DNA from: Macrostomum lignano
Lineage: Eukaryota
Direction: 5' to 3'
Assembly: GCA_002269645.1 (NCBI GenBank)
Contig: NIVC01002530.1
Coordinates: 1 to 41,196 of the forward strand
Length of the DNA: 41,196 bases
Shown: positions 14,120 through 41,196 of the stretch, piece by piece
How positions within the stretch are numbered: position 1 is the stretch's first letter
How the letters are laid out: each line of letters begins with the position of its first letter
Notes under the pieces: model-generated
The model's database searches: none
What the model was told of the DNA's origin: nothing
What the model saw: the letters and a program-made list of their open reading frames with translations, nothing else
Program-made: the position numbers and the translations under genes

Positions 14120-14396
14120 TGTTGGGCCTGGTGCGTGGGGTTGGGGTGCGCTTTTACTCCGTGTATTGTTTGTGTTCTTAACTCTGTGCGTGTACTCTTG
14201 GTCCGTGGCTCACGCTCTTTGCACGTCTCTGCTCTATCGTGATTTTAATGTACATTGTTGGTGTTTTAGCCCTGGGGTGGGGGTGGCTACTATTGAACCT
14301 CGCTTGTAATAAATCGTATCGTTGGCGGTCGGTGCACTTGGCACTTTTGTCTTGTCTCGCATACTCTCAGCTCATGACTTGTTCATTTCAACATTT

Positions 14397-14414
14397 TGGC
14401 GTCGCGAGCAGGAT
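14397..14414 (+). promoter_or_regulatory. Primer-binding site, probably tRNA-Ser
   Basis: TGGCGTCGCGAGCAGGAT lies 3 nt after the 5' LTR. Its complement ATCCTGCTCGCGACGCCA resembles the 3' ends of eukaryotic tRNA-Ser(CGA/UGA). Confidence 0.7.
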
Positions 14415-14420
14415 CTACTG

Positions 14421-17400
14421 ATGTCTATAAAGCTACGAGACCCACTGCCTCTAAACAACATTGAAGAGTTGCGGGCATGGATCGAGGTCTTTGACGCCCA
14501 GGCGCGATCAAAAGGAGTGAAGGACACCGATCGCACTGATGACACAGCTGCACATCTGGCGTTGACCGATGCCTTCCTTGGCTGCCTTGGCGTGGCACAG
14601 CTCATCAAAGTGAAGCAGCTGGTCGCGCCCAAACCGCTCTCGCAGATGAAGTGGGCGGAAATCAAGGAGTGCCTCGTGAGGTTTCTGGAGCCCAAGAAGA
14701 GGCTGCTGATTGCCGAGAGAGCGGCTTTCATGTCCATGCGCCAAGGAGACGGCGAGACGGTTGCCGGCTTCGCTGCCCGACTTCAAGAGCAGGCGGTGGT
14801 GTGCGAATTCGAGAAGCTGAAGGGTGAGAATGTTGATCCAGCTGAGCAGCTGATCAAAATGCGCCTCATCGCCGGTCTCAGCAACCAGGAGGTCCGTAGC
14901 AAGGTTCTCGAGCGCGAAGTCTCCGCAGAGCTCTCGGTGAGCCAGATCACCGAGTACGTGCAGCAACTTCAGATGGTGAGCAAATTTTCGTTCGGGCCAC
15001 TGACTGCCTCCGGCCAAGCTGAAGGAGACTCGGCGGTGCATCAGGCATCGCCCGCTAGCCAGGAGGTGCCAGAAGAGGATTCTGCTGGTGCCAACAGCAT
15101 CAACGCGGCTGAGATGGTGAGGCCCAGAGCCGGTGGAGGCCAGAGCTGCCAGCGCTGCGGCCAGGCGCAACATTGCAGACCGACAGACTGCCGGGCCCTG
15201 AAGGTCACCTGTCACAAGTGCGGGAAGACTGGCCATTTCGCGAAGGTCTGCCGGAGTGCCAGGACCCACTTTGTCGCACCCAACGAATCCAAGCACTCTG
15301 ACTCAGCCGTGACCAGAGACGAGCCGGTTTTCTACTGCGGTGCGGGCACCCCTGCTGCATTCTGCGATGTGAAAATCAACAGAAGGCAGGTCAAAATGGA
15401 AAAGGACAGCGGCGCCTCGTGCTCACTAATCTCGAGAAAGATCTGGGAAGAACTCGGCAGGCCGCCACTGAAGTCGCCCAAGTCTCGGATGCTGGCCTAC
15501 GACGGGCACGTGATGAAGCAGCTCGGCATCCTGGAGTGCCTGGTGGAGACTGGCGGCCCTGATGGCCGCTTTGCTGCGGCGGAGCTGCCTGTCATCGAAT
15601 GCGAGCAGAAGTTCGGGTTGCTCGGCCGGGATCTGCTCAGCTTGCTGCCAGCTCACCACTCAGATGAGGCCAAGCCGCCCAGCAACAACAGGTACGAGAG
15701 CTTGTTGGGCATCAAGGGAGCAGTTGGCGAGATCCTGTTGAAGGCGGGAGCCAGGCCGATTTTCCAACCAGCCAGAGAGCTGGCGCTGGCGCTGCATCCA
15801 CTGGTGAAGAAGGAGCTGGACCTGATGGAGAAGGCGGGCATAGTTGAGAAGGTGACGTCCTCAGAGTGGGGCAGCCCCATAGTGGTGACGGTGAAATCCG
15901 ACAAGATGTCTGTGAGGATCTGCGGAGACTACACTGCTGTCAATCAGTGGGTGCAGGACCAGACGTACTTGACTCCATCCATCGAGACAGCCTTCTCAAA
16001 GATGGCAAACAAGAAGTTGTTCTGCCGACTGGATTTATCTGACGCTTATTATCAGGTTCCGCTGGAAAACGAGTCAAAAGACATCACCACGATCAACACC
16101 CCTTTCGGCTGCTACCGCTTTAACAGGCTGCCGTACGGCATCAAGGTTTCTCCGTCTGTGTTCCAGCGCGAGATGGAGAAGCTGCTGGGTGAGCACCCAA
16201 GTGTCATCGTGTACCAGGATGATGTGCTCATGGGAGCAGTGTCAAAGGCAGAGCTGCAGAATATCAGAGAGAAGGTGCTGGACAAGCTGAGGGCGGCTAA
16301 TGTGAAAATCAACAAAGCGAAGTGCATTTTGGAGGCCAGAAGCCTAAAGTTCCTGGGCCACATCATCGATGAAGAGGGGATCAAGCCGGATCCGGGAATG
16401 GTGCAGAAGATTCAGGATGTGGAGGCTCCGAAAAGCAAGAAGGATCTAGAGCGGTTTCTGGGCTTGGCGCAGTTCTATGGTCGGTTGGTTCCCAACTTTG
16501 CTGAGAAGTGTCGGCCTCTGCAAGAACTTCGTCGAGCGGACCGTGTGTTTGACTGGAGTGCGGCTGCCGAGGCAGCGTTCACCAATGTGAAGCAGAGCCT
16601 GAGCTCGAATCCGTGTGTGAAACCGTTTGACGTCAACTCGCCGGTGTGTCTGCGGGTGGATGCCAGCGAGCAGTCTCTGGGCGCTGTGCTGGTGCAGTCA
16701 GGGCACCCAGTCATGTACCTCTCTCGGGCGCTGACCAAGTCTGAGGCCAACTACTCCAACATTGAGCGGGAGGCTCTGGCCATTGTCTGGGCAGTGGAGC
16801 GAGCCCGCAAGATGCTCCTGGGGAAGAGGTTCACACTCCAGACTGACCACGAGCCACTGAAGTACATCTTCAATCCCAGCAAGAACCTTCCTAAAACAGT
16901 GTCGGCAAGACTAACTCGCTGGGCCCTGCGACTATCTGCTTTTGACTACGAAGTTGAGTATGTGCCAGGAAGACTGATGGTGGATGCGGATGCCTTGTCT
17001 CGTTTGAGTTTTGCTGCCCAAGACCCTCCAAGTGACGCCATGCACCAGTTGGAGCATGAAAAGGTCGTGTCAGAAGGAGCTCTTGTGACTCTGCAGGATC
17101 TTCGTGAGGGAACCAGGATGTGCGCGTTGATGAAGCGGCTGCAGCAGAGGATCAGAACAGGCCGGTGGGGCCAGGTGTCGCAGGTGGAGAGGCCGTACAA
17201 AGCGTGCCGGGAGGCGCTGTCGGTGGAAGATGGTCTGGTGATCCACGGAACCAGAATTGTGCCCCCACCTGTTCTCCGCAGGCGCATTCTGGAGGTGGCG
17301 CACGACGAGGTGCATCCGAGCGCCGACAACACCAAGGCGCACATCTCCAAGGAGTTCTGGTGGCCGGGTCTTGATCGCGATGTTCGCAGCTTTGTGGAGC

Positions 17401-18095
17401 GCTGCCAGCAGTGTTCAGAAACTCGGCCAGTCCTGCAGCGAAGAATCGACACCTGGCCAGCCGAGAGTGAGCCATGGTCCCGGGTTCACATGGACCATTG
17501 TGAGATTTCTGGTGTCGGCCTGCTACTGTTGCTGTCGGACTCCTACTCCGGGTGGCCTGAGGCGATTCAGGTGCCAGACCGAACTGCGGACAGTGTCCTG
17601 CGGGTTTTGAGAGCGGTATTTGCCAGGAACGGAGTGCTTCGGACGCTGGTGTCGGACAATGCGCCGGAGTTCAAGTCGGAGAAAGTGTCCCAGTGGCTGC
17701 GCAGCATCGGGTGCCAGGAGCTGCACACTCCACCGTACCATCCGGCCTCGAACGGTCAGGCAGAAAGGCTGGTGAGGATCATCAAGGATGGACTCAAGGC
17801 GTGGACGAAGATAGTGCCGTTCGACCACTTCCTGCAGAAACTGCTGCTGACGATCAGGACCAGCCGGCCCAGTGGAAATAGAGCGGCATCTCCGGACGTT
17901 CTGATGTGGGGTCGTCGCCTTCGCCACCCGCTAACCATGACTGAGCAGGTGGGCGATCCAATCTGGCTGAGGATGCGTCCGGGATTTTCGCCGGTTCCGG
18001 GCAAGTTCGTGGTGCAGCACGGCCAGAACACGGCTCTGGTAGCCCCTGCGGACCAATCGGACGGCGGCCTGCGGCTGGCGCACTCAAATCAGTGA
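14421..18095 (+). CDS. Gag-Pol polyprotein (1224 aa): gag with two Zn knuckles, protease, RT, RNase H, integrase
   Basis: CHKCGKTGHFAKVC knuckle; protease DSGAS; RT RICGDY/LDLSDAYYQ/YQDD; RNase H DAS…IEREAL…TDH; integrase H..H/CQQC, HMDH, SDNAPEF, GQAER. First ATG after the PBS is at 14421. Confidence 0.95.
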   Translation: MSIKLRDPLPLNNIEELRAWIEVFDAQARSKGVKDTDRTDDTAAHLALTDAFLGCLGVAQLIKVKQLVAPKPLSQMKWAEIKECLVRFLEPKKRLLIAERAAFMSMRQGDGETVAGFAARLQEQAVVCEFEKLKGENVDPAEQLIKMRLIAGLSNQEVRSKVLEREVSAELSVSQITEYVQQLQMVSKFSFGPLTASGQAEGDSAVHQASPASQEVPEEDSAGANSINAAEMVRPRAGGGQSCQRCGQAQHCRPTDCRALKVTCHKCGKTGHFAKVCRSARTHFVAPNESKHSDSAVTRDEPVFYCGAGTPAAFCDVKINRRQVKMEKDSGASCSLISRKIWEELGRPPLKSPKSRMLAYDGHVMKQLGILECLVETGGPDGRFAAAELPVIECEQKFGLLGRDLLSLLPAHHSDEAKPPSNNRYESLLGIKGAVGEILLKAGARPIFQPARELALALHPLVKKELDLMEKAGIVEKVTSSEWGSPIVVTVKSDKMSVRICGDYTAVNQWVQDQTYLTPSIETAFSKMANKKLFCRLDLSDAYYQVPLENESKDITTINTPFGCYRFNRLPYGIKVSPSVFQREMEKLLGEHPSVIVYQDDVLMGAVSKAELQNIREKVLDKLRAANVKINKAKCILEARSLKFLGHIIDEEGIKPDPGMVQKIQDVEAPKSKKDLERFLGLAQFYGRLVPNFAEKCRPLQELRRADRVFDWSAAAEAAFTNVKQSLSSNPCVKPFDVNSPVCLRVDASEQSLGAVLVQSGHPVMYLSRALTKSEANYSNIEREALAIVWAVERARKMLLGKRFTLQTDHEPLKYIFNPSKNLPKTVSARLTRWALRLSAFDYEVEYVPGRLMVDADALSRLSFAAQDPPSDAMHQLEHEKVVSEGALVTLQDLREGTRMCALMKRLQQRIRTGRWGQVSQVERPYKACREALSVEDGLVIHGTRIVPPPVLRRRILEVAHDEVHPSADNTKAHISKEFWWPGLDRDVRSFVERCQQCSETRPVLQRRIDTWPAESEPWSRVHMDHCEISGVGLLLLLSDSYSGWPEAIQVPDRTADSVLRVLRAVFARNGVLRTLVSDNAPEFKSEKVSQWLRSIGCQELHTPPYHPASNGQAERLVRIIKDGLKAWTKIVPFDHFLQKLLLTIRTSRPSGNRAASPDVLMWGRRLRHPLTMTEQVGDPIWLRMRPGFSPVPGKFVVQHGQNTALVAPADQSDGGLRLAHSNQ

Positions 18096-18632: not shown

Positions 18633-19070
18633 TTAGCAATTCCCATGACTTGTGACATCTCAGTAATTCTCCCTTAATCTCCCATAACCTTTAACATCTT
18701 AGCAATTCCCATGACTTGTGATATCTCAGTAATTCTCCCTTAATCTCCCATAACCTTTAACATCTTAGCAATTCCCATGACTTGTGACATCTCAGTAATT
18801 CTCCCTTAATCTCCCATAACCTTTAACATCTTAGCAATTCCCATGACTTGTGACATCTCAGTAATTCTCCCTTAATCTCCCATAACCTTTAACATCTTAG
18901 CAATTCCCATGACTTGTGACATCTCAGTAATTCTCCCTTAATCTCCCACAACTTTTAACATCTTAGCAATTCCCATGACTTGTGATATCTCAGCAATTCT
19001 CCCTTAATCTCCCATAACCTTTAACATCTTAGCAATTCCCATGACTCGTGACATCTTAGTAATTCTCTCA
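18633..19070. repeat. 66-bp minisatellite, right part
   Basis: Same unit as 13735-14119, resuming in register after the TSD; degenerate sub-units continue to about 19500. Confidence 0.93.
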
Positions 19071-20062
19071 TGAATATTTTATTTATAGTTAACATAAATA
19101 TTGTTTTATAATTGAAACAAGCCATTTTCTCCATGAGAAAACTCCATCATTTCTTCCAATGAGCCTTAAAAAAGTTAGCAATTCTTGTATTAATCTTTTT
19201 GGTCAACAAGCAAATTCTTTCAAGTTGAACTTTTATATATTTTAAAAATCCTGACCATAGCTCTTACTATAAACTACCTTATCTAAAATCCTGCTGAAAG
19301 TCAGGATTTTAGCCATTTACCCTTATGAGCCTTGATATCTTAATGATTCTCTTTTTATAAACATTGAGATCTTCGAAATTCCCTTTATAAGCCTTAATAA
19401 CTTAGTAGTTCCTTCCATAAGCTTTGATATCTTAGCCATTTTTCCTATAAACCTTGACATCTTAATAGCTAGTTATCCCTTTGAGCCTTGATATATCACA
19501 GTGAAAGCTTATCTTTCATTTTTGATATGATATTTTCTATTATAAATATGATGCTTTAGCTATTCTTTATTTCTTTTTTGAGTTTTCTTTGCTAAAAAAC
19601 TTTTAATATTAAATATTTTATAGCTAAGATTCAAACCTAAGGCTATGTCACTTATTTATAATTCAGTCTATTTATATCTAAGCTAGCTCAAATCCAACTG
19701 ATCACATGATTCATAAATTATACTTACTTATAATTTAACATTCATATTTACTAAATTACAATAAAAGTTATATGAAACAGTTATTGACATAATTTATATA
19801 TTTTATCATGTATGATTTCTATATTTTATATTATACATAATAAAAAAATAGTCAATGAATCAGTTTATTAAAGCTCATACTATAGTTGCATAATTTTAAT
19901 AAACTTATACTTTGCTTTTATGTTATATTTTTTACCTATTATGATAGGGGGCCTAATAAAATCTTTATTAGTTATATATGGCAATATTAAATATAATATA
20001 TAGGGCTATGCACATCTTATAATAAATTCTCTTAATAGAGCATTTATTAATAAAACTGATAT

Positions 20063-20703
20063 TGAAGTGACACATTTTGGCTCTAGAAAGTTCCTATCCA
20101 GATTGAATGTATTTTAACCAATGAATGCGCTCCAAATAGCAAAAGCTGAGGACACAACCCCAACGTCAACCAATGAAAAGCAGTTTTGTACCATCTAATG
20201 CAATTAAGACTGAAAAGTACTATAAAAGCTCATGTTAACCAAGCAAAAAGCTCGCCTCTCCACGCCCTTGCCTCTCTTTTGCCTTTCTCCTAGCCTACCT
20301 CCTTTGACTATTTTTGATTGACATAATTAGGGTCTCAACCCAAATGCTAAAACTGATAAATTGACTTACTAAAGCTAAACCAACACTAATCCACGTTTTA
20401 CAATAGACTGAACCTTCGGTTCACTCGAACAACTAGAAATACCTTGTGACTTAAATCGAACGAGCTTCTTATTTGGAATCCCATCTTAGACATTATATTT
20501 TGTGAAATAACATCTCAAGATTGTGACCATCAAATACAATGGTCTGTAAGTTAACATCAAGTGTTTGCATCATCAGGAAAAGTCAGTTGAATCCGCCGCC
20601 TCAGTTATTTGGCTCTCACATTGATATTTGAAGTAGAACAAGAGCTATAGAAGTGAGAGACCAGAAAAAGAACAATAACCCACATATATTTTAAAATATT
20701 TAA
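20063..20703 (+). mobile_element. Solo LTR of the Gypsy-2 family
   Basis: About 94% identical by eye to the reverse complement of 33753-34410. Starts TGAA; flanked by ATAT at 20059-20062 and 20704-20707 (4-bp TSD); contains two CCAAT boxes and TATAAAA. Confidence 0.88.
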
Positions 20704-23700
20704 ATATAATCTAATATTATCATTAAAATTAGCTATAGTCTCCTGTTGCATATATGTATGCTAGTAATAAATCTAGATCAGATGCAACATTAGAAGCAAA
20801 GAAATTTTTGGCAAAAAACAAAATGTAAAATGTAGAAATATGAAACAGTCTATTTTAGAGAATATCTAAAGTCTAAGTCTAGAATGAGTTTATTTTCCTT
20901 TTTTCTCTATTATAAATGCTTCAAACAGGTTGATGATTTGCTTTTTTGATTTTTGTTAAGTTACTAAAAAATCTAGAAATTTTAATGTTAATATATCTAA
21001 TCTAAACTCTTAATGAGAAAAAGGTAGAACCTGGAAGGAAGACAAAGACTTAAAGGGATAGAAATGATAGGCCTATATTTAGGCAAAAAGTCCTTTGCAT
21101 CACTCCCTAGATAGAAAGCTATGCTAGTTATAATATGGTTAGGCATAAGGCTAAGGTCTATAGGCCTAGTTATGTTTCAGATAAAAATTCTGACTTGCCT
21201 GATCAAGACATTTCAATTGCTCAAGGGGGTAAACAGTCTTTCCACATGCAGTGCACTTTTTATCCATCTTAGACTTAGGCCTACTTGTAGGTTGTAGTTT
21301 AGTAGTATATTATAGGCCGTTAGATCACAGTCTCAGATGATTATTATTGAAGAAGTTAGATGAAGAAGTTAACAGCAAAAATGATTAACAACAAGCTTTC
21401 TAGAGACTTTTTATTAGACTTAACCTTAGGTTCTTGCGCTGCGTTGGGTACTCTTAACTTGTTTTAATAGCATGGCCTGCACAAGTAGGGCTATTTGGCT
21501 ATATACAGTAACAAATTTTTATTATGTTGATTTCCTTTTACAAATTTTATAAGAATTCTTAGATTATGGCAGGCTGTAAAGTTTTTAATGATAAAAAACT
21601 AATAATTTTTCTGTACAAATATTAAACTTCTTAAGCTAGGAGTTCACACAAACAACATGTTCGTACTATTTTGTTTGCTATAGATGGTTACAAAAAGCGA
21701 TCGTTCTTAATTTGTATTTTTTCTAGAAAACTGAGTATAAAATAGACTAAATAATAAATTACCGAGCTAGTTAACTTAAGTTGAAATGGTAAGAAAGCGT
21801 GTTACGCTGATGTATTATGCATACTTTTAAATAAAGTAGATATTTTAGTATCTGGAGTTGATATTTTCTCAAACACCGTCAATTATATCTTAATAAATGG
21901 GCTGGCTGAAGCCAGTGAAGTGAAGGTTATGTTTCACATGAAGTTGGTCAGCTTGCGCCTTGCAGAAGCAGAGGTGCTATCAAAAGCATCAAATAGAAAT
22001 AGGAGAAATTAATTGTTAATTATGCAAATTAAATGTGTTTCCTAATGGGAACTCGGAACTTTTATGTTTGTTTTTGGGAGTTTAATGATTTATTAGGAAG
22101 GAATGGATAAAAGTTAACAAATCCTAAAATTACTTAATTAAACTTAAAGTTTAGTGCATATTGAACTTAAATTTGATTGTATTCTAAAATTCTTCTTATG
22201 ATATAAAGTTATTTCCTTTGCCTAGCATTAGCAAGGATCAGGATCCCATTTTGTAGAATGTAGAATAAAAATATTATGTTTTATAAAATCTAAAGTTATA
22301 GACTTAAAACTAAGATTGCATTTAATCTCTTCCTAGTAGACTGCTTTTAAATTTTATTATATTGAATTAATATATTGAAATATAATAAGCTAATAGAACA
22401 GGGGTACCTAGTAAAATGTGAAATCTGTAATAGAATGATAAATTATGAAATTGATTGTAGAATCCACTAACTTAAAATAAAATACAAAATATAGGAATCA
22501 AAAAATTATAATTTTAGATACATGCTATGCCTATAGCAATATAAATTATAATATAGCAATTTAACTGTGAAAAATATATAAAGTAGTTTTTTGTATAATT
22601 CTATATTGAGGCAAACTGAACTAGAAATAGCAGCATCTATTAGACCTACTCAAAGTAGTAAATATAGGTTCTCTTATAAATAATATGGCTAATAGGTGTT
22701 GAAAAAATTATCATAATTTTCTTTTTAGCAGTTTGGTCAAAATTTGAAGGCTTCACCACTTCATTATTATAGGCCTAATATTCTATTCGGATTCTGTTAT
22801 AGATTCTATATTTTACTAGGTGCAATTAGTATTCAATTGTATAATGATACAATTTTTTATTCTATCAATTAACATTTTATCAACTGGCATATTATTAAAT
22901 AGTATTTTGTTAATTAGCATTTTATCAACTAGACCCTAGTATTTTGTCAATTAATATTTGTTTCAAGCCAAAATTATGAATATTAACAAGTATTTTTATA
23001 TTATTAAAGCCAATAACAAGCCATTTATGCTTATATAAAAAATGGGCTAAGATATAAAAAAATTTTCTCATATAGTATAGAAAATAGCAATGTATTATTT
23101 CTAATTTAGGGAAGGATAGTGGCTGGGTTGTCACCCCCCTCTTTCAATGAATTGTTAGAGTTAAAGCAATATGTTAAGCTAAACTCTTAAAAAATATATA
23201 TACTAAAACATAGATGCACAATTGCTGGCTGACTTAGCCTCTTTGGCCACTGTAAATTGTGGTAGACTAGGGGTAAGTTGCAAAAATGCCCACCCAAAAG
23301 AATATAGACATAATACTAATTAGATGACAAGGTATTTAGCCTTAATAAGACAGTTATAGTTACACTTGTCATTTATCAAAGTTGTATTACTTTTTGCTTA
23401 AGGGTTTCTTTCATAGGTAAGTTGCATTTTTTGGTATTTTTAGCATGGTATATCCATACTATAAGTCATTAAATCATATAGCATTTAAGACCTTAAATAA
23501 AGACCTTGAATAGCCAATAAGTTGCTATATAAGCCATCAATTTGCTTGCATCAAAAGTAGCATAATAAAGAAGACATTGACATTTTATTGTGATATTAAT
23601 AGAAAGAGGAATTAATTATTAATTTTATATTTCTATTCCTCTAACAGATTTAAAAAGTTTTAATATATTAGATTTCCTTATTTTGATTTTAGATGCTAAA

Positions 23701-24121
23701 GTCCTTAAGTAAATTTTAAACTTTTTGTTTAAGCATTATGATCAAACAAAAATTCTTAGCTATTTGAAGGGCAAAATTTATTTTCATTTTTTCCTTGTAT
23801 TTATTCAACTAAAAATGAAAGAAAATTTCTTGTTTTTTATTTTAAATAGTTTTTATAGGTATAATAGCTTATTAAAAAATTCATATGACAACATGGCACT
23901 TGACATGAAACTAAAGTTATGAAAACCTCTATAAGCCTTACCATAATTCCCCTTTTCTAAATTTGAGCATTGGCATCTCAGCAACCCCATTTGATCATTG
24001 GCATCTCAGCAACCCCATTTGATCACTGGCATAAAACTTATTTTATATACAATGTAATTAAAAAAATACATGCACATCCTCATCAACAATGTTAAATATT
24101 CTACAGCCACAATAGCCCAGC

Positions 24122-25543
24122 ATGTCCAATCTGTGGAAGGCCCAGGCTGGCTACAATGTGAACATGGCCGCCGGTGACAACAATGACGATGATGATTGGG
24201 AGACTGAGGCAGATTTTGAAAACGATGTCAGCGAAAAAGAGCAGCGCTGGGGCTCCAAAACCGTGGCCGGCTCTGGCCGACAGTCCGACGTCAATGTTGC
24301 CCAGCTGCGCGATCAGGTCATTCACGACGACAGCGCCGAGAAGAAACGTCAGCTGGACTCCGGACCGAAGGCCTCCTACGGTTATGGCGGCCAGTTCGGT
24401 GTTGAGAAGGACCGCATGGACAAGAGCGCCGTGACTAACGAGTACCAAGCGCAGCGTCAGCTGCACCAGTCCCAGACTGACGCAGCCAAGGGATTCGGCG
24501 GCAAGTACGGCGTGCAGAGCGACCGGAAGGACAAGAGCGCCGTTGGCTGGGAATATCAGGAGAAGCGACAGTTGCACGAATCCCAAACTGATGCCGCTAA
24601 AGGTTTCGGGGGCAAGTACGGGGTGCAGAGCGACCGGAAGGACAAGAGCGCCGTTGGCTGGGATTACAAAGAAAAACGCGAACTGCATGAATCCCAAACT
24701 GATGCCGCCAAGGGTTTCGGTGGCAAGTACGGGGTGCAGAGCGACCGGAGGGACAAGAGCGCCGTTGGCTGGGATTACAAAGAGAAGAGGGAGCTTCACG
24801 AATCCCAGACTGATTCCGCCAAAGGATTCGGCGGGAAATATGGGGTGCAAAGTGACCGGAAGGACAAGAGCGCCGTTGGCTGGGATCACCAGGAGAAGAG
24901 TAAGCTGCACGAGTCCCAGACTGACGCGGCCAAAGGGTTCGGAGGCAAGTACGGAGTGCAGAGCGACCGGCAGGATAAGAGCGCCGTAGGCTGGGATCAC
25001 CGGGAGCAGTTGCAGCCGCACGCCTCTCAGACGGACGCTTCGAAAGGGTTCGGCGGCAAGTACGGAGTGCAGAGCGACCGGCAGGATAAGAGCGCCGTAG
25101 GCTGGGAAGCTCCCGCTAAGCCCCAGGAGGAGCCTCAGCCGCAGTACGAACCGGAAGTTCCTCAACCTAAATATGAACCGGAAGTTCCCCAGCCTCAACC
25201 CCAATACGAACCGGAAGTTCAGTATGAGGAACCGGAAGTTCGGTATGAGGAACCGGAAGTTCGGTATGAGGAACCGGAAGTTCGGTATGAGGAACCGGAA
25301 GTTCAGTATGGGGAACCGGAACCTGAGCCCGAGCCGCAGTACCAGCAGGAGGAGCAGCAGCAGGCGGCCCCTGCCGGCACCTGCACCGCCCTGTACGACT
25401 ACACCGCTGAAGATGACGACGAATTGTCCTTCGCCGCCGGAGATTTGATTAATTTGGTTCAAAAAATTGACGACGGCTGGTGGCTTGGCACAATTGAGGA
25501 CAGACAGGGCATGTTCCCGGCTAACTATGTACAGGAGAATTAG
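24122..25543 (+). CDS. CTTN: Cortactin (Src substrate), single coding exon, 473 aa
   Basis: NTA domain with DDDDWET (Arp2/3-binding DDW); 6.5 cortactin repeats ([20 protein letters not shown]); Pro/Glu/Tyr-rich linker; C-terminal SH3 [15 protein letters not shown]…GWWLG…GMFPANYV. Putative acceptor TTCTACAG 15 nt upstream of the ATG. Confidence 0.97.
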
Positions 25544-33752: not shown

Positions 33753-34410
33753 TGAAATATTTTAAAATATATGTTATTGTTCTTCTTCTGGTCTCTCACT
33801 TCTATGGCTCTTGTTCTACTTCAAATATCAATGTGAGAGCCAAATAACTGAGGCGGCGGATTCAACTGACTTTTCCTGATGATGCAAACACTTGATGGTA
33901 ACTTACAGACCGTTGTATTTGATGGTCACAATCTCGAGATGTTTTCTCACAAAATATAATGTCTAAGGTGGAATTCCAAATAAGAAGCTCGTTCGATTTA
34001 AGTCACAAGGTGTTTCTAGTTGTTCGGGTGAACCGAAGGTTCAGTCTATTGTGAAACGTGGATTGGGTGTTGGTTTGGCTTTAGTAAGTCGACTTATAAG
34101 TTTTGGTGTTTGGGTTGAGACCCTAACTGTGTCAATCAAAATAGTCAAACGAGGTAAGCTAGGAGAATGGCGAAGGAGAGGCAAGGGCGTGGAGAGGCGG
34201 AGCGAGCAGAAAAAAGGGCGAGCTTCTTGCTTGGTTAACATGAGCTTTTATAGTACTTTTCAGTCTTGATCGCATTGGATGGTACATAACTGCTTTTCAT
34301 TGGTTGAGGTTGGGGTCGTGTCCTCAGCTTTTGCTATTTGGAGCGCATTCATTGGTTAAAATACATTCAATCTGGATGGGAGCTTTCTAGAGCCAAAATG
34401 TATCACTTCA
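33753..34410 (-). mobile_element. 3' LTR of Gypsy element 2 (658 bp, TGAA…TTCA)
   Basis: Homology to the solo LTR at 20063-20703 defines the ends. Terminal inverted TGAA/TTCA; CCAAT x2 and TATAAAA on the minus strand; purine tract GAAAAATAGAGCGAA (34425-34411) directly upstream, in the same orientation as pol. Confidence 0.8.
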
Positions 34411-35053
34411 TTCGCTCTATTTTTCGGGGAAGCGAGGCCCTCCGAGCGCATAAAAACAGAAAAAGAATAGTAGGGGGTTAAAATTGATAAAATTGCAGAA
34501 AAAGATAACGCATTGTAGTGAACGAGAAAAGTTGTCGCAGAAAAAATAGTGCGCAGTGAATAATGTTAGCAAAAATGTTTGAGTAAAAGGGAACCAATTT
34601 AAGCAAGGTAACATAGGTTAAAGTACAACATCAGTTTAAATAGCGAAAGAAGGGATAGCGCAGAGGGCCTTTAGTTAGGCTAAGCTAAACTAGCTAAGCA
34701 AGGATGGAATAAAACGCAGCGAGGGTAACCAAAAAATCGATAAAATGGGTGTACAGAGCAAAATGGAGGTTTAGCGACGCAAGCTTAAAGTGAAAACGCG
34801 GTGAGTTAAAAGGAGGGTAATAAAAATCATTGTACATCGAAAGTTGGGGGGGGGGTTAGCGAGGAACCGCTCAGCTAATAAATCATGTACAAAGTAGAGG
34901 TTAAAATTTTAACTGGGGAAACGAAAAAGATAAAAATTCTAGGAAAAATTGTACAGTCCAAAGGGGGTATATAACACAAGGCTTTAAAATGGAGCAAGGC
35001 GAGTTAAGCGATTTTTTGACTGACGGTTAATAATCAAGTAAATTCGATTCATC

Positions 35054-35314
35054 ATGAGCACAAGGAAGAACTTGCGGTTTTTGCTAGGCGACTTAGCAAA
35101 GCGGTCCCAAGATGATTGGGACCTTGGCGACAGGCGGTGGGCGATCACGCTCGTCCTTCTCGCTGTGCTGGGAGTGCTGGTGCTGCTGCTGCTGCTGTGC
35201 CAATGTTGCCGTTGCTGTCGTTGTTGTCGGCGCAACTGCTGCAGGTCGGGCGCGCCTGGAGCGTCGACTGCGGTAGCAGATGTGGAGGCGCCGCCAGCGG
35301 AGTCGGTGGTGTAA
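35054..35314 (+). CDS. Putative 86-aa single-pass membrane protein with a Cys/Arg-rich juxtamembrane cluster (antisense to pol)
   Basis: ATCATGA start; TM segment WAITLVLLAVLGVLVLLLLL followed by CQCCRCCRCCRRNCCR; TATATAA at 34968-34974. Competing overlapping minus-strand ORFs exist. Confidence 0.45.
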   Translation: MSTRKNLRFLLGDLAKRSQDDWDLGDRRWAITLVLLAVLGVLVLLLLLCQCCRCCRCCRRNCCRSGAPGASTAVADVEAPPAESVV

Positions 35315-35861
35315 GAGCCGAGCTGCTTTGCTGGTTCGTCCGGCCTTCTGAACGCAACAACGGCCCTTTTCAGGGCCACCACTTGATGTGATGCCGAAGT
35401 TGTCAGATAAGCAGACTGTGCAGTCATGAAGGAACAAACGTTGTTGAGCCGTATGCTTTAGTGCTAGTTGGTTGACTTAGGTGAAAGCAGCGCCAGGGAC
35501 AGAGCGATTTGCAGAGACCAGGCATAGTGTAGGGCGATGGCTGCGTAGATCAAGGTTGTGGCTTGAATCCGGTTGAAGCAGCGCCAGAGACAGCAATTGG
35601 CAGTGACCAGGCACAGAGCAGCAGTCGTGTAGGTCAGGGTTGGGCAGGGTTGAGCAGGGTTGAGCAGGGTTGAGCAGGCTAGCGCGTGATGACTTTTGAA
35701 AAAGCAGTTGACAGAATAACAGAAAAAATAACATAAGCTTTACACAAGTGAGCGCAAAAGAGTGGAGGAGTAATTAATAGGCAGATAAATGAAAAATATT
35801 TTGAGTATTTTTGAACAATTTTTTGTAGTGTTTCAGCGCTCAATATTGAAGAAAAAGCGGA

Positions 35862-36818
35862 TTAAAATAGTGAGCGATGATGGTGAATCAAGTCATAAAA
35901 AAGAGCGTATGCCAGTCGAGCAAAATTAATATTAAGATCAGCAGGAGGAGAATGCTGAATACGCTTGGTGGGGAAGGTATGAAGAGCAGCATACTCTGGC
36001 AAGGTGTTAGGGTAGCCAACATGAGCATTTCGTACACGGTGAATATTGTATAAATATCGATGAAGCGGAGGACAAGAAAAAGGGAAGATAGTATGGGCAA
36101 CTACCGAGCGAGAATAAAAATCGATAATTATAAAGGCAAAGTTTCTTGAACGCGTTGAGAGAATGAAAACAGCGTGGGTGAAGAAAAAATTGTGCGGATA
36201 CAGACGATTTAGCGTGCGTATGATAGCGCTCTTAGTAGCACGAGGAAAAAACGGAGGAAAAATTTGATAAACATAAGGGGCGAGAGAATCGAAAGAGGTT
36301 AAATAATTTTGGAGCGTAGAAGTTAATTTTTGCGCCGAAAGATTAGCAGCATAATGGCGGAATTGTTGCCATGGGTAGCGCAGAGAGGAAAGCAGCAAAG
36401 GCCAAGTGTCTTGGTTAAAGCGCAGGCATGATTGAGGGAGAGTAGAAGCAGAGAGTTGGAAGAAATCGTCGATAGACATATCAGGAGAGAAAAGAAAATG
36501 TATGATTGGTACGAAGCTGCGGCTGAGAACATCATTCATAGTGGGAGAAAAGTTCTGTATACGTGGTCGTGAGTGAGTACGACGCAGCACACCAAATAGA
36601 CTAATTCGCAGAACGCGGAGCATCTTAGGATAAAAACGATGGCAGCGGATAACATAAAAACGCGAGAAGAAAGCGGAGGCCATGCGTAGCCGTTGGGGTT
36701 CACCAATAGTTTCAGAATAAAATATTGCTTCAGTGAACCAAGCAACAACGGTTGCGAGGCAAATAAGATCATGATTTAACTGTGGTCGGATATCCACTGG
36801 TTGCGGAAATGGATCCAT
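35862..36818 (-). CDS. ORF3 of Gypsy 2: unknown 318-aa protein (MDPFPQPVDIRPQ…)
   Basis: Uninterrupted 957-nt frame downstream of integrase (open from 37127). Candidate splice acceptor (polypyrimidine tract plus TTGCAG) at 36881-36880. No recognisable family. Confidence 0.65.
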   Translation of the reverse strand: MDPFPQPVDIRPQLNHDLICLATVVAWFTEAIFYSETIGEPQRLRMASAFFSRFYVIRCHRFYPKMLRVLRISLFGVLRRTHSRPRIQNFSPTMNDVLSRSFVPIIHFLFSPDMSIDDFFQLSASTLPQSCLRFNQDTWPLLLSSLRYPWQQFRHYAANLSAQKLTSTLQNYLTSFDSLAPYVYQIFPPFFPRATKSAIIRTLNRLYPHNFFFTHAVFILSTRSRNFAFIIIDFYSRSVVAHTIFPFSCPPLHRYLYNIHRVRNAHVGYPNTLPEYAALHTFPTKRIQHSPPADLNINFARLAYALFYDLIHHHRSLF

Positions 36819-37123
36819 AAGAGAAAGGAAAAAGGAGAAAAGCAATAGATACACAAAATATTGATTTAGCGTGTGAGCTCTGCAATGTAAAGAGGGAAAA
36901 GAGAGAAATTTTTGTAGCTTTTGTTGATAAAACGGAAAATAAAAGTTCATTTGTGTCAGTTTGTCAATACTCGTAGTCACGTAAAGAGTCGCAATGCAGG
37001 GAGAGAGAGCAAAATTGTTAGAAAAGAAGGAAAAAAGCAGAAGAGAAAGAAAGGAAGAGAAAGCAATATTGTCAGTCAAGGAAAAGAAAGGAGAAAAGAA
37101 ATTTAGAAGATTTTTTTTATCAT

Positions 37124-40100
37124 TCACGACTTCTTGTTCTTCGATCTTAGGTTGTAGCCGTGCGTCTGTGGCTGACCTGGTGGCTCATCAGTGGACGTGG
37201 TTTGCAGCGCGATGGACTTGCTCAATGGCGGCCGATGGTTGTGGTGGACCTGAATGTCATCAGTTGTGAACTCAGGTAGGTGACTAGGTCCAGCGCTGAG
37301 TCCATCTCCAGGCCAAGGTTTGAGCTTGGAGGCATGTACCACGATTGGTCGTTCGCTTGGCCGGTTGACATCAGAAATCAGTGCGTTCTGATCGGAGAGC
37401 CATGCTAATAGACGCATTGGGCCACGATAAGGATTGGAGAATTTTGTCTCCTTTGTTGCTGAGACATCCAAGTAGCATCGTGCACCTGGGCGTATGTAGC
37501 GGCGGTTGATCTTCTTGTCAGAGTTTTCAGCGCGCTGTTCAGCTGAGTTGTGCAGAAGTTCCTTGGCGACTTCTCTGGCAAGCAAAATAGCTGAACAGGT
37601 CAAATTGACTGGTTTAATAACGTCCATGTATGCAGTTGTCTGGTGTTCCATGATCCGTGCGTTGGGTGGCAGAAAGTCTCGAGCGAAGAACAGGTAGAAT
37701 GGTGATTCGTTCATCGTTGAGTGAGCGGCGGTATTGATTGCTAGTGTCACCGCGGGTAGGAAGTCAATCCAGAGATCTGGTTTGTCATGGACAAAGGCCG
37801 TAAGAGTTTGCTTCAGTGTCTTGTGTGCGCGTTCGACGAAGTTGCTAGATGGTTGGTACACCGAGGTGTAGATCAGGTGTATTCCAAGGGCACCCATAAA
37901 CTCTCGAAATTCTTGCGAGATGAATTGGGGTCCATTGTCTGAGATGATGTGTGCTGGTAGTCCTGCGAAAGCGAACACACGGTTGAAGAGGTTGTTGCAG
38001 ATAGTTGCAGAAGTTGTCTCAGTTAGCGGGATAGTGAACAGGAATTTGCTAACGCCGCATTGGGCCGTGAGTATGTACTTGTAGACGTCGCGGCCGTGGG
38101 AAGCTGGTGGCAGTGGTCCTACAAGGTCGATAGCCAAATGAGAAAAAACCTCGTTGAATTTGACGGCTTTGTGCAGCGGTCGCAGTCGAGGTGCTGTTTT
38201 CGCTTTGTGGCAGACTTCGCAGTTGTTAACGAAATTGAAGACGTCTTGCCGTAGTGTAGGCCAGTAATAGAAGTGATTGATTTTGTCAGCTGTCTTTTGG
38301 TGACCTAGATGACCACCAAGGGCTGTCGAGTGGTTACTGGTCAAAAGAGCTTCACGGTAGCGTGTTGGTATCACGAGGCGGCTTCGTCCTTCGTCATCTT
38401 CAAAGTATAGAGTGTTTCCGTCCAGGAAATAACGTGCCAGGTGTCGGCGAACATATTGTTGGTCTTTCTTGGACAGCTCGTGAGTGGGTGATTTTTCCGA
38501 TAGAAGTGCTTTGATTGTTGACAGTAATGGGTCTTGATCAATGGCATCCTGCAGTCCGTTGAATGTTGACAGCGATTGTATCTGACAGACTTTGGGATGC
38601 GTGAAAGGCAGTCCGCTTCTACGTTTGATTTGCCTTTCACATAGTTGAGAGTGAAGTTGTAATCTTGTAGCGCTAGAATCCACTTCTGAAGTCGTTTTGA
38701 GATAGGTTGCTTGTCACTGAATAGACTCTTGAGTGGCTGGTGATCAGTGAAGACGTGGAATTGTTGGTAAGAGGCGTAGAGGAACACGTGTAGCTTCTTT
38801 ATTGCCCAATAGATGGCGTATGCTTCGCGTTCAATCGGTGGATAGCGTTGTTCGGTTGGACTTAACGTCTTAGAAATGTAGGCAACCGGGCGTTGGTGGT
38901 TGCTGTCGTCTAGCTGTGAGAGTACTGCTCCAATGGCGGTATCCGAAGCATCAGTGTGCAGAAAGTACGGTTTTCGCGGATTTGGATGAACCAGTAGTAT
39001 ATCCGTAGAGAGAAGTTGTTTCAGCTTTTCAAAGGCTGCTTGGGCGGCGTTTGTCCAGACGAATTTGTTAGGCTTCGAAGTATTTTTGATGATACTCAGA
39101 AGTGGTTGTACTACTCGTGAGTAGCCAGCAATGTGCGTTCGGTAGAAATTTGCAAGTCCAAGGAAAGATTGTAGTTGTTTAACCGTTTGAGGCACAGGGA
39201 AGGTCTTGATTTTCTCGATGAGGCTGGGTGCGGGTCTAATGCCTTGAGCAGAAACCACAAATCCAAGATATTGTACCTCTGTTTTGGCAAAGATGCATTT
39301 TCGTAGTGAAATTCGCAATCCATGATGTCGTAACTTTTGGAAGAAGCGTTCGATTTCTTTGAGCATGCCGGTGAAGTCTTCGGCGATGAGCATGACGTCA
39401 TCCAAGTAGGCAATCTGATTTGGAGAGTCAGCTGTTAACAATGCTACAAGACGGCACATTAAGCTAGGACTGGACTTGAGTCCTTGAGGTAGTCGATTGA
39501 ATTCCCAAAGTAGGCCGTTGGGTGCAATGAACGCAGTGTATTTTGTGCTTTCTGGATCGATCCGAACTTGGTAGAAAGCATCTGCTAGGTCACAGAGTGT
39601 GTACAGTTTAGCGTTTTTCAATCGATGTAGCAAATCCGGAATCTTAGGAGGTCGGATGCTAGGAGCACGAATTAGCTTGTTCAGTTTTCGGTAATCCGTC
39701 ACGAGTCTTAGTTGTCGGCGACCTTGAGCGTCGAGCGTCTTCTTTTCCACGAGAAGACATGGACTTGAGTATTCCGATTCACTCGGACTGATGATTCCTT
39801 TTTGACGGAAGTTTTCGATGAGCTCATCAAACCGTTCTTGTAGTCCATGAGCGATTGGATAGGGTCTGGACGTGACTGGCTCAGAGTGTGGGTGTAGATG
39901 CAGGTGAGCCGTGTATTGGGTAGAGCAACCCATGTCGGTTGGCAGTAGTGCCAAGACGTCACGGTACTTGTTCATTAGAGTAACTAATTGTTCACTCTGC
40001 TCGGTTGAGAGGTGCTGGTTGGCTTGTTTGAGTTGAGTACGGATCATGTCAGTCGTAGGTGCTTCTTGTTGCAGCGTGCGGAGACTGTTGATTTGAGCTG

Positions 40101-40836
40101 CTGGGCGCACGATGTTGTAGTCAGACATGTTAGCCAGATTCCAATGACTTGTTGAGGATGCAAGGTTTGCGTTGTCAGCGACGGGTTGGCAATTTCCACA
40201 GTGATAGTTTGTCCGTCCGGGTTGACGAAACAAGGCAAGTTGGTATCATCAACTGGTGTTTTCTGGATCGTGTGGTCCTTAGGGACGAACAGGACAGGAA
40301 TCGTTGGCTCATGTCGAGAAGAGAGTTTCAGCGTGACTTGGTGCGTTGTCTGTGGTGGTAACTCTAGCTTGTTTTGCATCACCGCAGAGGTTTCTTGCAA
40401 CTGTTGGATGGAGTTGAGCATCGCAAATTGCTCATTGCCAAGCTTAGCTGTCGCTTTCGAGTAGTCGAATTGTAGTGGTATTCCCAGTGACTTAAAGGTT
40501 TCTACTCCTAAGAGGCAAATCATAGTCAGCGTCGGGGGTGTCGAGCACAAAGGCCGATATCTTGTGGTTGCGTCCATCGATTTCGAGATCAAAAGTAGCC
40601 TTTTTGTTGAGGTTTAGTTGTTGTCCTCCTGCACAAATGGCGTTCATGTTGGTGTCTTGTAATGGTACTCGAAGCTTTTTGGCGAATGCCGGTGAGATGC
40701 AGGAGATCGAGGCGCCGCTGTCAATGAGGGCGGTGCATCTGTGTCGAGTATGCGGTGCGTTGCGGCACCACAGTTGATCATAGTTGCTGTTGTTAGATGC
40801 TTCAAAACAAAGGCGTATGAGTAGTTTGCTGGCCAT
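37124..40836 (-). CDS. Pol of Gypsy 2 (protease, linker, RT, RNase H, integrase with GPY/F), split by three apparent 1-bp frameshifts at about 40518, 40140 and 38593
   Basis: ALIDSGAS; RLVTDYRKLN, CDLADAFYQ, RLPQG, YLDD; TDAS…IEREA…TDHQPL; H..GGH/CEVC, AIDLVGP, SDNGPQF, VERAH; PYRGP; ends GYNLRSKNKKS*. Confidence 0.92.
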
Positions 40837-40941
40837 TTTGGAACTTTAGGTTCTGGCGGTGGTCTCCGTGGTGGCGGAAGGGTGGCACGAAGTTCAATCG
40901 TTTCGATGGTGCCGAGGGTGTTGGCGCTTGTCTCGGTGGTA

Positions 40942-41196
40942 TCAGTTGCTGTTGTTGGGAGTATCGTTTCGTGATTCCACTCGAGTTGGAGTTCGTTGTT
41001 GGCCGCAGCACTTGTATAGTGTGCGTTCTGCCGTACGGATGGTGCTGGCGACGCAGAGTCGGCCAAGATTGCACACGAAGATAATAACGGCAATGTAGAC
41101 GATTACAGCTGCTGTTAAGACGAACTTTTCTTGATAGTTTGCGACTAGTCGATCCCAGTTGAATATCGACGAAGACATAGATTGAAGAGAGCGAGT
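40942..41196 (-). CDS. Transmembrane-segment ORF immediately upstream of protease (frame open to the window edge)
   Basis: …SSSIFNWDRLVANYQEKFVLTAAVIVYIAVIIFVCNLGRLC…KCC…: a 19-residue hydrophobic stretch with downstream Cys; no gag knuckle here. Confidence 0.45.
   Translation of the reverse strand, partial: TRSLQSMSSSIFNWDRLVANYQEKFVLTAAVIVYIAVIIFVCNLGRLCVASTIRTAERTLYKCCGQQRTPTRVESRNDTPNNSN

Follow-up and report, generated by a model that had tools for sequence, protein, structure and literature searches.

Small open reading frames (ORFs) resembling reovirus FAST proteins have been reported in env-less Gypsy elements of insects, as the original prediction for this locus noted. The accessible part of the report describing them (10.1101/2025.03.14.642691) places these ORFs, named sORF2, in MDG1-group LTR elements and gives lengths of 63-107 aa, an ectodomain of ~30 aa, and a rule of 3 K/R after the helix. 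All 105 insect candidates in that report are sense-oriented, a myristoylation motif having been a condition of their selection; MGxxxS/T is present in 4 of 6 D. melanogaster sORF2 and served as a search filter elsewhere, and the paper says that its search excluded the palmitoylated class. Plant Gypsy elements carry extra ORFs in the antisense orientation, the function of which is left open in the portion of PMC7264820 drawn on here; the corresponding portion of PMC12801592 contains nothing on extra ORFs. Metazoan histone mRNAs have 25-60 nt between stop codon and stem-loop, as given in the accessible part of 10.64898/2026.10.14.759114, and the planarian stem-loop histone transcripts described in the available sections of PMC10954484 are poor in poly(A), their translation being tied to S phase and SLBP.

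We report here an intronless 86-aa ORF that lies antisense to the pol gene of a Gypsy element and is followed by a histone mRNA 3′ stem-loop. It was found in a window of 41,196 nt, which is the whole stretch of DNA analyzed. The locus probably holds a real accessory gene whose histone 3′ end is borrowed.

Host element

The window is animal DNA, with one cortactin-like and one ubiquitin-hydrolase exon among minisatellites. The cortactin-like stretch (24116-25543, + strand) is a single open frame of 475 codons that encodes 7 HS1 repeats plus an SH3 domain. A Ty3/Gypsy element occupies the minus strand from the right window end to 33753. Its pol (37124-41102, −) encodes protease, RT, RNase H, and integrase in Ty3/Gypsy order, recognized by Pfam RVT_1, RT_RNaseH, Integrase_H2C2, and rve and by a DSG protease motif, which supports the placement of the ORF in a Gypsy element. 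In this copy pol is broken over several frames, and its identity to the best 120 relatives listed is only 31-40%; the host element is a divergent Ty3/Gypsy LTR retrotransposon.

The 3′ LTR (33753-34410, −) is 658 nt long, has the ends TGAA...TTCA, and is adjoined by a purine-rich run that forms the polypurine tract (34411-34425, −). It matches a solo LTR of the same family (20063-20703, +), which has an ATAT target duplication on its two sides and sits in a very AT-rich block (~19000-24000, GC 24-33%) that differs clearly from the remainder of the window. The window does not reach the 5′ LTR or most of gag. A sense frame at 40942-41196 (−) is open from the window end and finishes just ahead of the protease; it has a hydrophobic helix, basic residues, and a CC pair, counts 78 aa from the ATG at 41178, belongs to no Pfam family, and may be the gag tail or, oriented as sORF2 are, another small membrane ORF of the element. 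A second Gypsy element (14313-18095, +) has one open gag-pol frame of 1260 codons and a 66-bp minisatellite on both flanks, and no histone stem-loop was found in it.

A sense-oriented extra ORF of 362 aa (35862-36950, −; 440 codons stop to stop, to 37184) follows pol. It is rich in Phe/Leu/Ser and has no relatives among 2547 candidates, no Pfam family, and no atlas match. Behind it, between pol and the 3′ LTR, is an internal stretch of ~1.4 kb in which the 86-aa ORF lies antisense.

Antisense ORF

The ORF (35054-35314, +) runs from ATG to TAA, and the N-terminal segment, TM helix, and Cys/basic cluster originally claimed for it are all present. Residues 1-28 form a polar N-terminal segment with zero Cys; they are followed by the TM helix (~29-49), a Cys/Arg cluster (49-64), and a 22-residue low-complexity tail. 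The top 19-residue Kyte-Doolittle window is 31-49, with a mean of 3.29. The segment after the helix, CQCCRCCRCCRRNCCR, has 9 Cys and 4 K/R within 15 residues, and the charge is 0 ahead of the helix and +4 behind it. There are four CC pairs, and the MGxxxS/T myristoylation motif is absent. AlphaFold, run without an alignment, returned one helix (pLDDT >90, pTM 0.39).

The expected A at −3 of the ATG is present, as is a TATA box, TATATAA (34968-34974, +), a candidate antisense promoter that had been placed about 80 bp upstream and lies 79 nt ahead of the ATG. An upstream ATG occurs at 34989, 15 nt past the TATA box. A variant contig from run X13, with a nearby change behind 34965, retains TATATAAC; another, from run X3, departs at 34958, and the TATA is absent from its 30 letters given.

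The layout is uncommon in the window. Among 58 ATG ORFs of 50-130 aa, three have TM + basic, and only this ORF has TM + basic + ≥2 Cys. Local Markov resampling of 34407-35860 gave the full layout in 2 of 1000 resamples and TM + basic in 11 of 1000. Since the layout criteria were set after the ORF had been seen and the Markov null ignores triplet repeats, the layout by itself is only moderate evidence for the ORF. No relatives of the 86-aa protein were found among 16 candidates in a protein search. Against 1.84 billion representatives there was a single match, which was rejected as a relative because it is the translation of a tandem repeat.

Predicted histone-type 3′ end

The original prediction overlooked a histone mRNA 3′ stem-loop (35362-35377, +) that shares its strand with the ORF. 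The stem-loop is 16 nt long and has the canonical form, with a 6-bp stem, a 4-nt loop, and conserved flanks. It is followed by ACCAC and lies in a histone 3′ UTR stem-loop region (35357-35403, +) where the RNA would be cut near 35382. The hairpin is present in both the MFE and the centroid fold. Rfam RF00032 (Histone3) matches at full length with 33.2 bits (E = 5.1e-7), which is 0.8 bit below the gathering cut-off of 34, and the match is therefore absent from the list at that threshold; the other 3 matches of the same search have E >4. A degenerate stem-loop pattern has 3 matches in the window versus 1.09 expected (11 of 100 shuffles reach 3), and the match is exact only at 35362.

From the ORF stop, the distance is 47 nt to the stem and 42 nt to the start of the RF00032 model. 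The next + strand poly(A) signals, ATTAAA at 35861 and AATAAA at 36113, lie >500 nt farther along. No histone family was found for the ORF in Pfam or PDB searches; the encoded protein is a non-histone. The TATA box, intronless ORF, and stem-loop make up a histone-style gene arrangement.

The contigs of four public runs were aligned to 34500-35900. In all four runs, the summed contig depth peaks at 35346-35392, at 10-13× that of the 3′ part of the ORF, so many other sequences of the same organism share the stem-loop region. Summed contig depth is not copy number, and histone genes and contig overlaps may contribute to the spike. A GC-rich block behind the stem-loop (35393-35700) has short internal repeats, a contig depth above that of the ORF in most bins, and no stable minus-strand fold.

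The sequence TGATGCCGAAGTTGTC (35389-35404, +) is a candidate histone downstream element, or U7 pairing site. Two contigs of the same organism diverge just past ACCA (behind 35381). The first has 13 of the 16 letters of 35389-35404 at the same offset (binomial P ~1e-5), and the second has 6 of 16, of which the first four are TGAT, both by hand comparison. A motif from a loose contig end has no further occurrence in the window. Downstream sequences reaching 11 of the 16 letters were found for none of the 146 metagenome matches listed (see below). The element is unlike the usual purine-rich AAAGAG type, and it fits a putative lineage-specific U7 site.

Metagenomic matches to the stem-loop

The exact 22 letters of 35360-35381 were scanned against metagenome contigs, with 44 of 64 parts covered, and gave at least 146 matches in at least 128 loci. 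A histone-like ORF, defined by a match to histone references drawn from the same metagenome data, lies upstream in 97 of the 146 matches listed, with the 22-mer a median of 27 nt after the stop (range, 2-52); here the distance is 45 nt. This association argues that the 22-mer, single-stranded flanks included, is a histone signal, found here in the correct orientation and at the correct distance. A working histone-type 3′ end at this locus appears likely.

Among the matches listed, 49 are without a histone match, and 31 of these have an upstream frame of ≥40 aa. After L042 and L044, whose ATG frames are histone-like, were left out, 29 loci were profile-scanned. A Pfam match with E ≤0.01 was obtained in 10 of the 29, and 5 of these are DDE transposase domains, above the curated cut-off in L017 and L027 and below it in L021, L023, and L026. 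In all five, the stem-loop is 15-28 nt past the stop and is enclosed with the gene by inverted repeats, in the stretches 1116-2469 in L017, 37-1219 in L021, 1-1442 in L023, 1-1837 in L026, and 36-2749 in L027; L012 and L018, the other loci tested, have weak repeats only. The C-termini in L094, L096, and L104 are alike by eye to those of the DDE loci and have no Pfam match. Other non-histone ORFs just ahead of the stem-loop are P2RX7_C-like (L012 and L018), GDSL-like (L016), or a RING finger (L056), and L031 and L066 have 261-aa frames without an identified family in this position.

A tblastn search of RT, integrase, and both extra ORFs against the 128 metagenome stem-loop loci listed, which are mostly short, gave no match, and in viral contigs no related elements were found by RT or by the stem-loop pattern. 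Titles and the starts of abstracts were searched for transposon genes that have histone-type ends, largely outside the subscription journals, and no such paper was found.

Coding strand

The original prediction cautioned that the ORF overlaps two minus-strand ORFs. The first (34984-35427, −; 147 aa) is present; the second (35093-35437) is open but lacks an ATG start. The 147-aa frame passes through the reverse complement of the stem-loop. It has third codon positions in common with the + ORF, so neither synonymous change nor codon usage can tell the two frames apart, and in the codon usage comparison they were indeed not separable. Another minus ORF, 35477-35734, was rejected because of 1-nt insertions at 35722-35723 in 4 of 4 runs.

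Among the matches listed, the ORF region is present in identical contigs in 4 of 4 runs and in one diverged copy in 2 of 4 (X12 and X13, from different studies). The diverged copy aligns to 35050-35202 (153 nt) with 30 differences and 0 gaps. The likeness starts 4 nt ahead of the + ATG, and it is from this alignment start that the ATG of the diverged copy is taken. By hand translation, the 30 loose letters downstream read Q-C-S-A-C-R-W-C-C-R in the + frame, compared with Q-C-C-R-C-C-R-C-C-R in the window, and the letters upstream read 8 differing residues and then a stop in the minus frame, where the window has 21 residues. The diverged copy is thus gap-free and keeps Cys/Arg codons in the + frame, and its minus frame ends early, which bears on the earlier question of which frame is conserved across copies.

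Of 40 substitutions listed, 0 are in the ORF (7.5 expected) and 1 is in the minus ORF, with 62 further ones, among them the 30 differences of the diverged copy, outside this count. Of 12 indels listed, 0 are in the ORF (2.2 expected, not significant), with 22 outside the count. The zone of low variation spans the minus ORF too, and more diverged copies may fail to align there.

These data bear on two other readings of the locus. One holds that there is no + strand expression, that the hairpin is either a captured histone fragment or a sense GAAA-loop hairpin of the genomic RNA, and that the ORF exists only as the shadow cast by a minus frame rich in Gln, Ser, and Thr. The common third positions and inseparable codon usage would allow this, and a hairpin forms on the minus strand too. 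We nevertheless regard it as improbable, given that on the + strand the single-stranded flanks agree with the histone pattern, the stop-to-stem spacing fits histone genes, the likeness of the diverged copy starts 4 nt ahead of the + ATG with an early stop in its minus frame, and 99 of 100 shuffles fold better than the minus strand of 35330-35720. In the other reading, the stem-loop functions and the ORF is incidental, the relevant product being a short antisense RNA of S phase with a role in tuning the element or in supplying piRNA production. It draws on the occurrence of the stem-loop in far more contigs than the ORF, on stem-loop histone RNAs as piRNA sources in planarian stem cells (in the available sections of PMC10954484), and on the antisense non-coding RNAs known from micropia (in the portion of PMC7264820 drawn on here). 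A diverged copy that is gap-free over 153 nt from the ATG and retains Cys/Arg codons beyond makes it very unlikely.

Taken together, the boundaries of the diverged copy and the stem-loop favor the + frame as the probable gene, with the 147-aa minus frame probably its shadow. That the + strand carries a real gene we consider very likely.

Proposed function

The reading that we somewhat favor is an accessory gene on the antisense strand of the Gypsy element, with a histone-type message and a membrane-protein product. To our knowledge, SLBP/U7 processing is regarded as exclusive to histone messages, a view with which the accessible part of 10.64898/2026.10.14.759114 is consistent. At this locus, Pol II would start ~30 nt past the TATA box, SLBP would bind the hairpin, and U7 would pair ~12 nt further on, placing the RNA end near 35382. 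The SLBP/U7 machinery of the host would in this way cut the message and leave a tail-less RNA. Since messages of the histone type lack a poly(A) tail, a blank poly(A) RNA-seq result would not count against the gene. If the RNA behaved like histone RNA, it would be stable and translated mainly in S phase, i.e., in stem and germ cells, where insertions become heritable. The cassette would have to be antisense because a sense-oriented signal would cut the genomic RNA ahead of the 3′ LTR; the early cut may also spare pol from antisense RNA.

What can be said of the protein's role comes from its layout only. The protein would insert N-out/C-in without a signal peptide, and its Cys cluster may be S-acylated. 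Such a palmitoylated single-pass protein is predicted to shape membranes or take part in trafficking as an accessory of the viroporin/FAST class, and would likely aid the element's particles at the membrane.

The histone-type end is more surprising than the FAST reading. Whether mobile elements in general couple their own genes to the histone 3′-end pathway for S-phase timing, as the Gypsy antisense gene and the transposases of DNA transposons would suggest, we judge to be evenly balanced. Through a retrotransposon gene with such an end, selfish DNA would gain a ready-made timer for S phase and stem cells. Such RNA would also escape poly(A)-based sequencing, which could explain accessory genes that have gone unseen.

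Comparison with known systems

The likeness to FAST proteins that was originally claimed for the ORF stands as a generic outline, with a short ectodomain, one TM helix, and juxtamembrane Cys/Arg; membership in the family is not supported. In size and topology, the 28-aa N-terminal segment, the single helix, and the N-out/C-in orientation predicted from charge agree with FAST proteins, as does the basic cluster. No fusion peptide was found: there is no Cys in residues 1-29, and the best hydrophobic moment there, 0.558, is equaled by 2250 of 5000 shuffles, which places ectodomain amphipathicity at the shuffle mean. A moment of 0.61 at residues 50-60 comes from the CCR repeat and has no control run; beyond residue 57 it is 0.1-0.3.

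Compared with sORF2 as described in the accessible part of 10.1101/2025.03.14.642691, the product is likewise a small single-pass protein of a Gypsy element with an ectodomain of about 30 aa and a basic patch after the helix, and some lepidopteran sORF2 are also placed after pol. Unlike sORF2, the ORF is antisense to pol (pol on −, ORF on +), has its own TATA and a histone-type end, and is Cys-rich; sORF2 are mostly myristoylated with Tyr after the helix, whereas this ORF starts MSTRKN and has no such Tyr. With reovirus p10 FAST, as covered in part of PMC7412057, it shares an ectodomain of <40 aa, one TM helix, juxtamembrane di-cysteines, a basic cluster, a disordered tail, and no myristoylation. 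It differs from p10 in having no cystine noose, 86 aa rather than ~100-200, 9 Cys in a CCR repeat, and no sequence likeness. Bdelloid LTR elements also have small TM ORFs with cysteines, according to the portion of PMC5408684 drawn on here.

A true cell-cell fusogen of the FAST type, one that takes capsids from cell to cell as the palmitoylated counterpart of sORF2 and is timed by the histone 3′ end, is unlikely. The lengths of protein and ectodomain fall in or near the ranges given for sORF2, and the 4 K/R in 15 post-helix residues exceed its rule of 3, but MGxxxS/T, ectodomain Cys, and post-helix Tyr are all absent and the ORF is antisense. The di-cysteines as in p10 and the uncontrolled moment of 0.61 would suit fusion, while the ectodomain moment is that of shuffles. 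No env-like family was found in the visible part of the element, as this reading would have it, and SMIM, FXYD, NB, M2, and E proteins have the same layout. If the protein did fuse cells, env-independent transfer would extend beyond insects to the palmitoylated class. The boldest form of this idea, a palmitoylated FAST-like fusogen present only in dividing stem and germ cells and moving an env-less element between cells, we regard as quite unlikely. The predicted protein cannot be filed as a FAST protein, resembles SMIM, FXYD, or viroporin proteins just as closely, and would work like a small acylated membrane accessory protein.

The nearest clusters by protein-model features are SMIM22 (0.89), influenza NB and M2, geminivirus movement protein (0.86), and coronavirus E (0.84), all <0.9. 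The best PDB sequences are phospholemman/FXYD (E 0.14-0.6) and the best Pfam E is 0.019, so that no SMIM, FXYD, or viroporin match is significant. SMIM5/18/22, FXYD/phospholemman, NB, M2, and E are alike in size, one helix, and Cys + basic after the helix, a likeness that is compositional. These proteins suggest a further reading in which the gene is real and its product acts as a regulator of a host membrane protein or as a small pore, for example to blunt defense or block re-entry, with no role in particle transfer. The pore reading and the FAST reading alike predict oligomers. The cluster and PDB neighbors point that way, and none of these matches reaches significance, the TM + Cys pattern being what drives them; we consider a host-membrane regulator or pore rather unlikely.

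For the preferred reading, an antisense accessory gene with a histone-type message, the two relevant systems are histone genes and the extra ORFs of plant Gypsy elements. The locus is like the histone mRNA 3′ end (RF00032, SLBP, HDE, and U7 snRNP) in its stem-loop with flanks, 47 nt past the stop of an intronless ORF with a TATA box. It differs in that the ORF is a non-histone inside a retrotransposon and the downstream element is not of the AAAGAG type, and histone-type processing is a prediction here. In the portion of PMC7264820 drawn on here, the one characterized plant antisense-ORF product is nuclear, and neither a small membrane protein nor a histone-type end is mentioned. The plant ORFs described there have the same position and orientation as the ORF reported here, and Grande gene23 has its own upstream promoter. 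If the present reading is correct, it suggests why an extra ORF should lie antisense, a point that the same portion of PMC7264820 leaves open for the plant elements.
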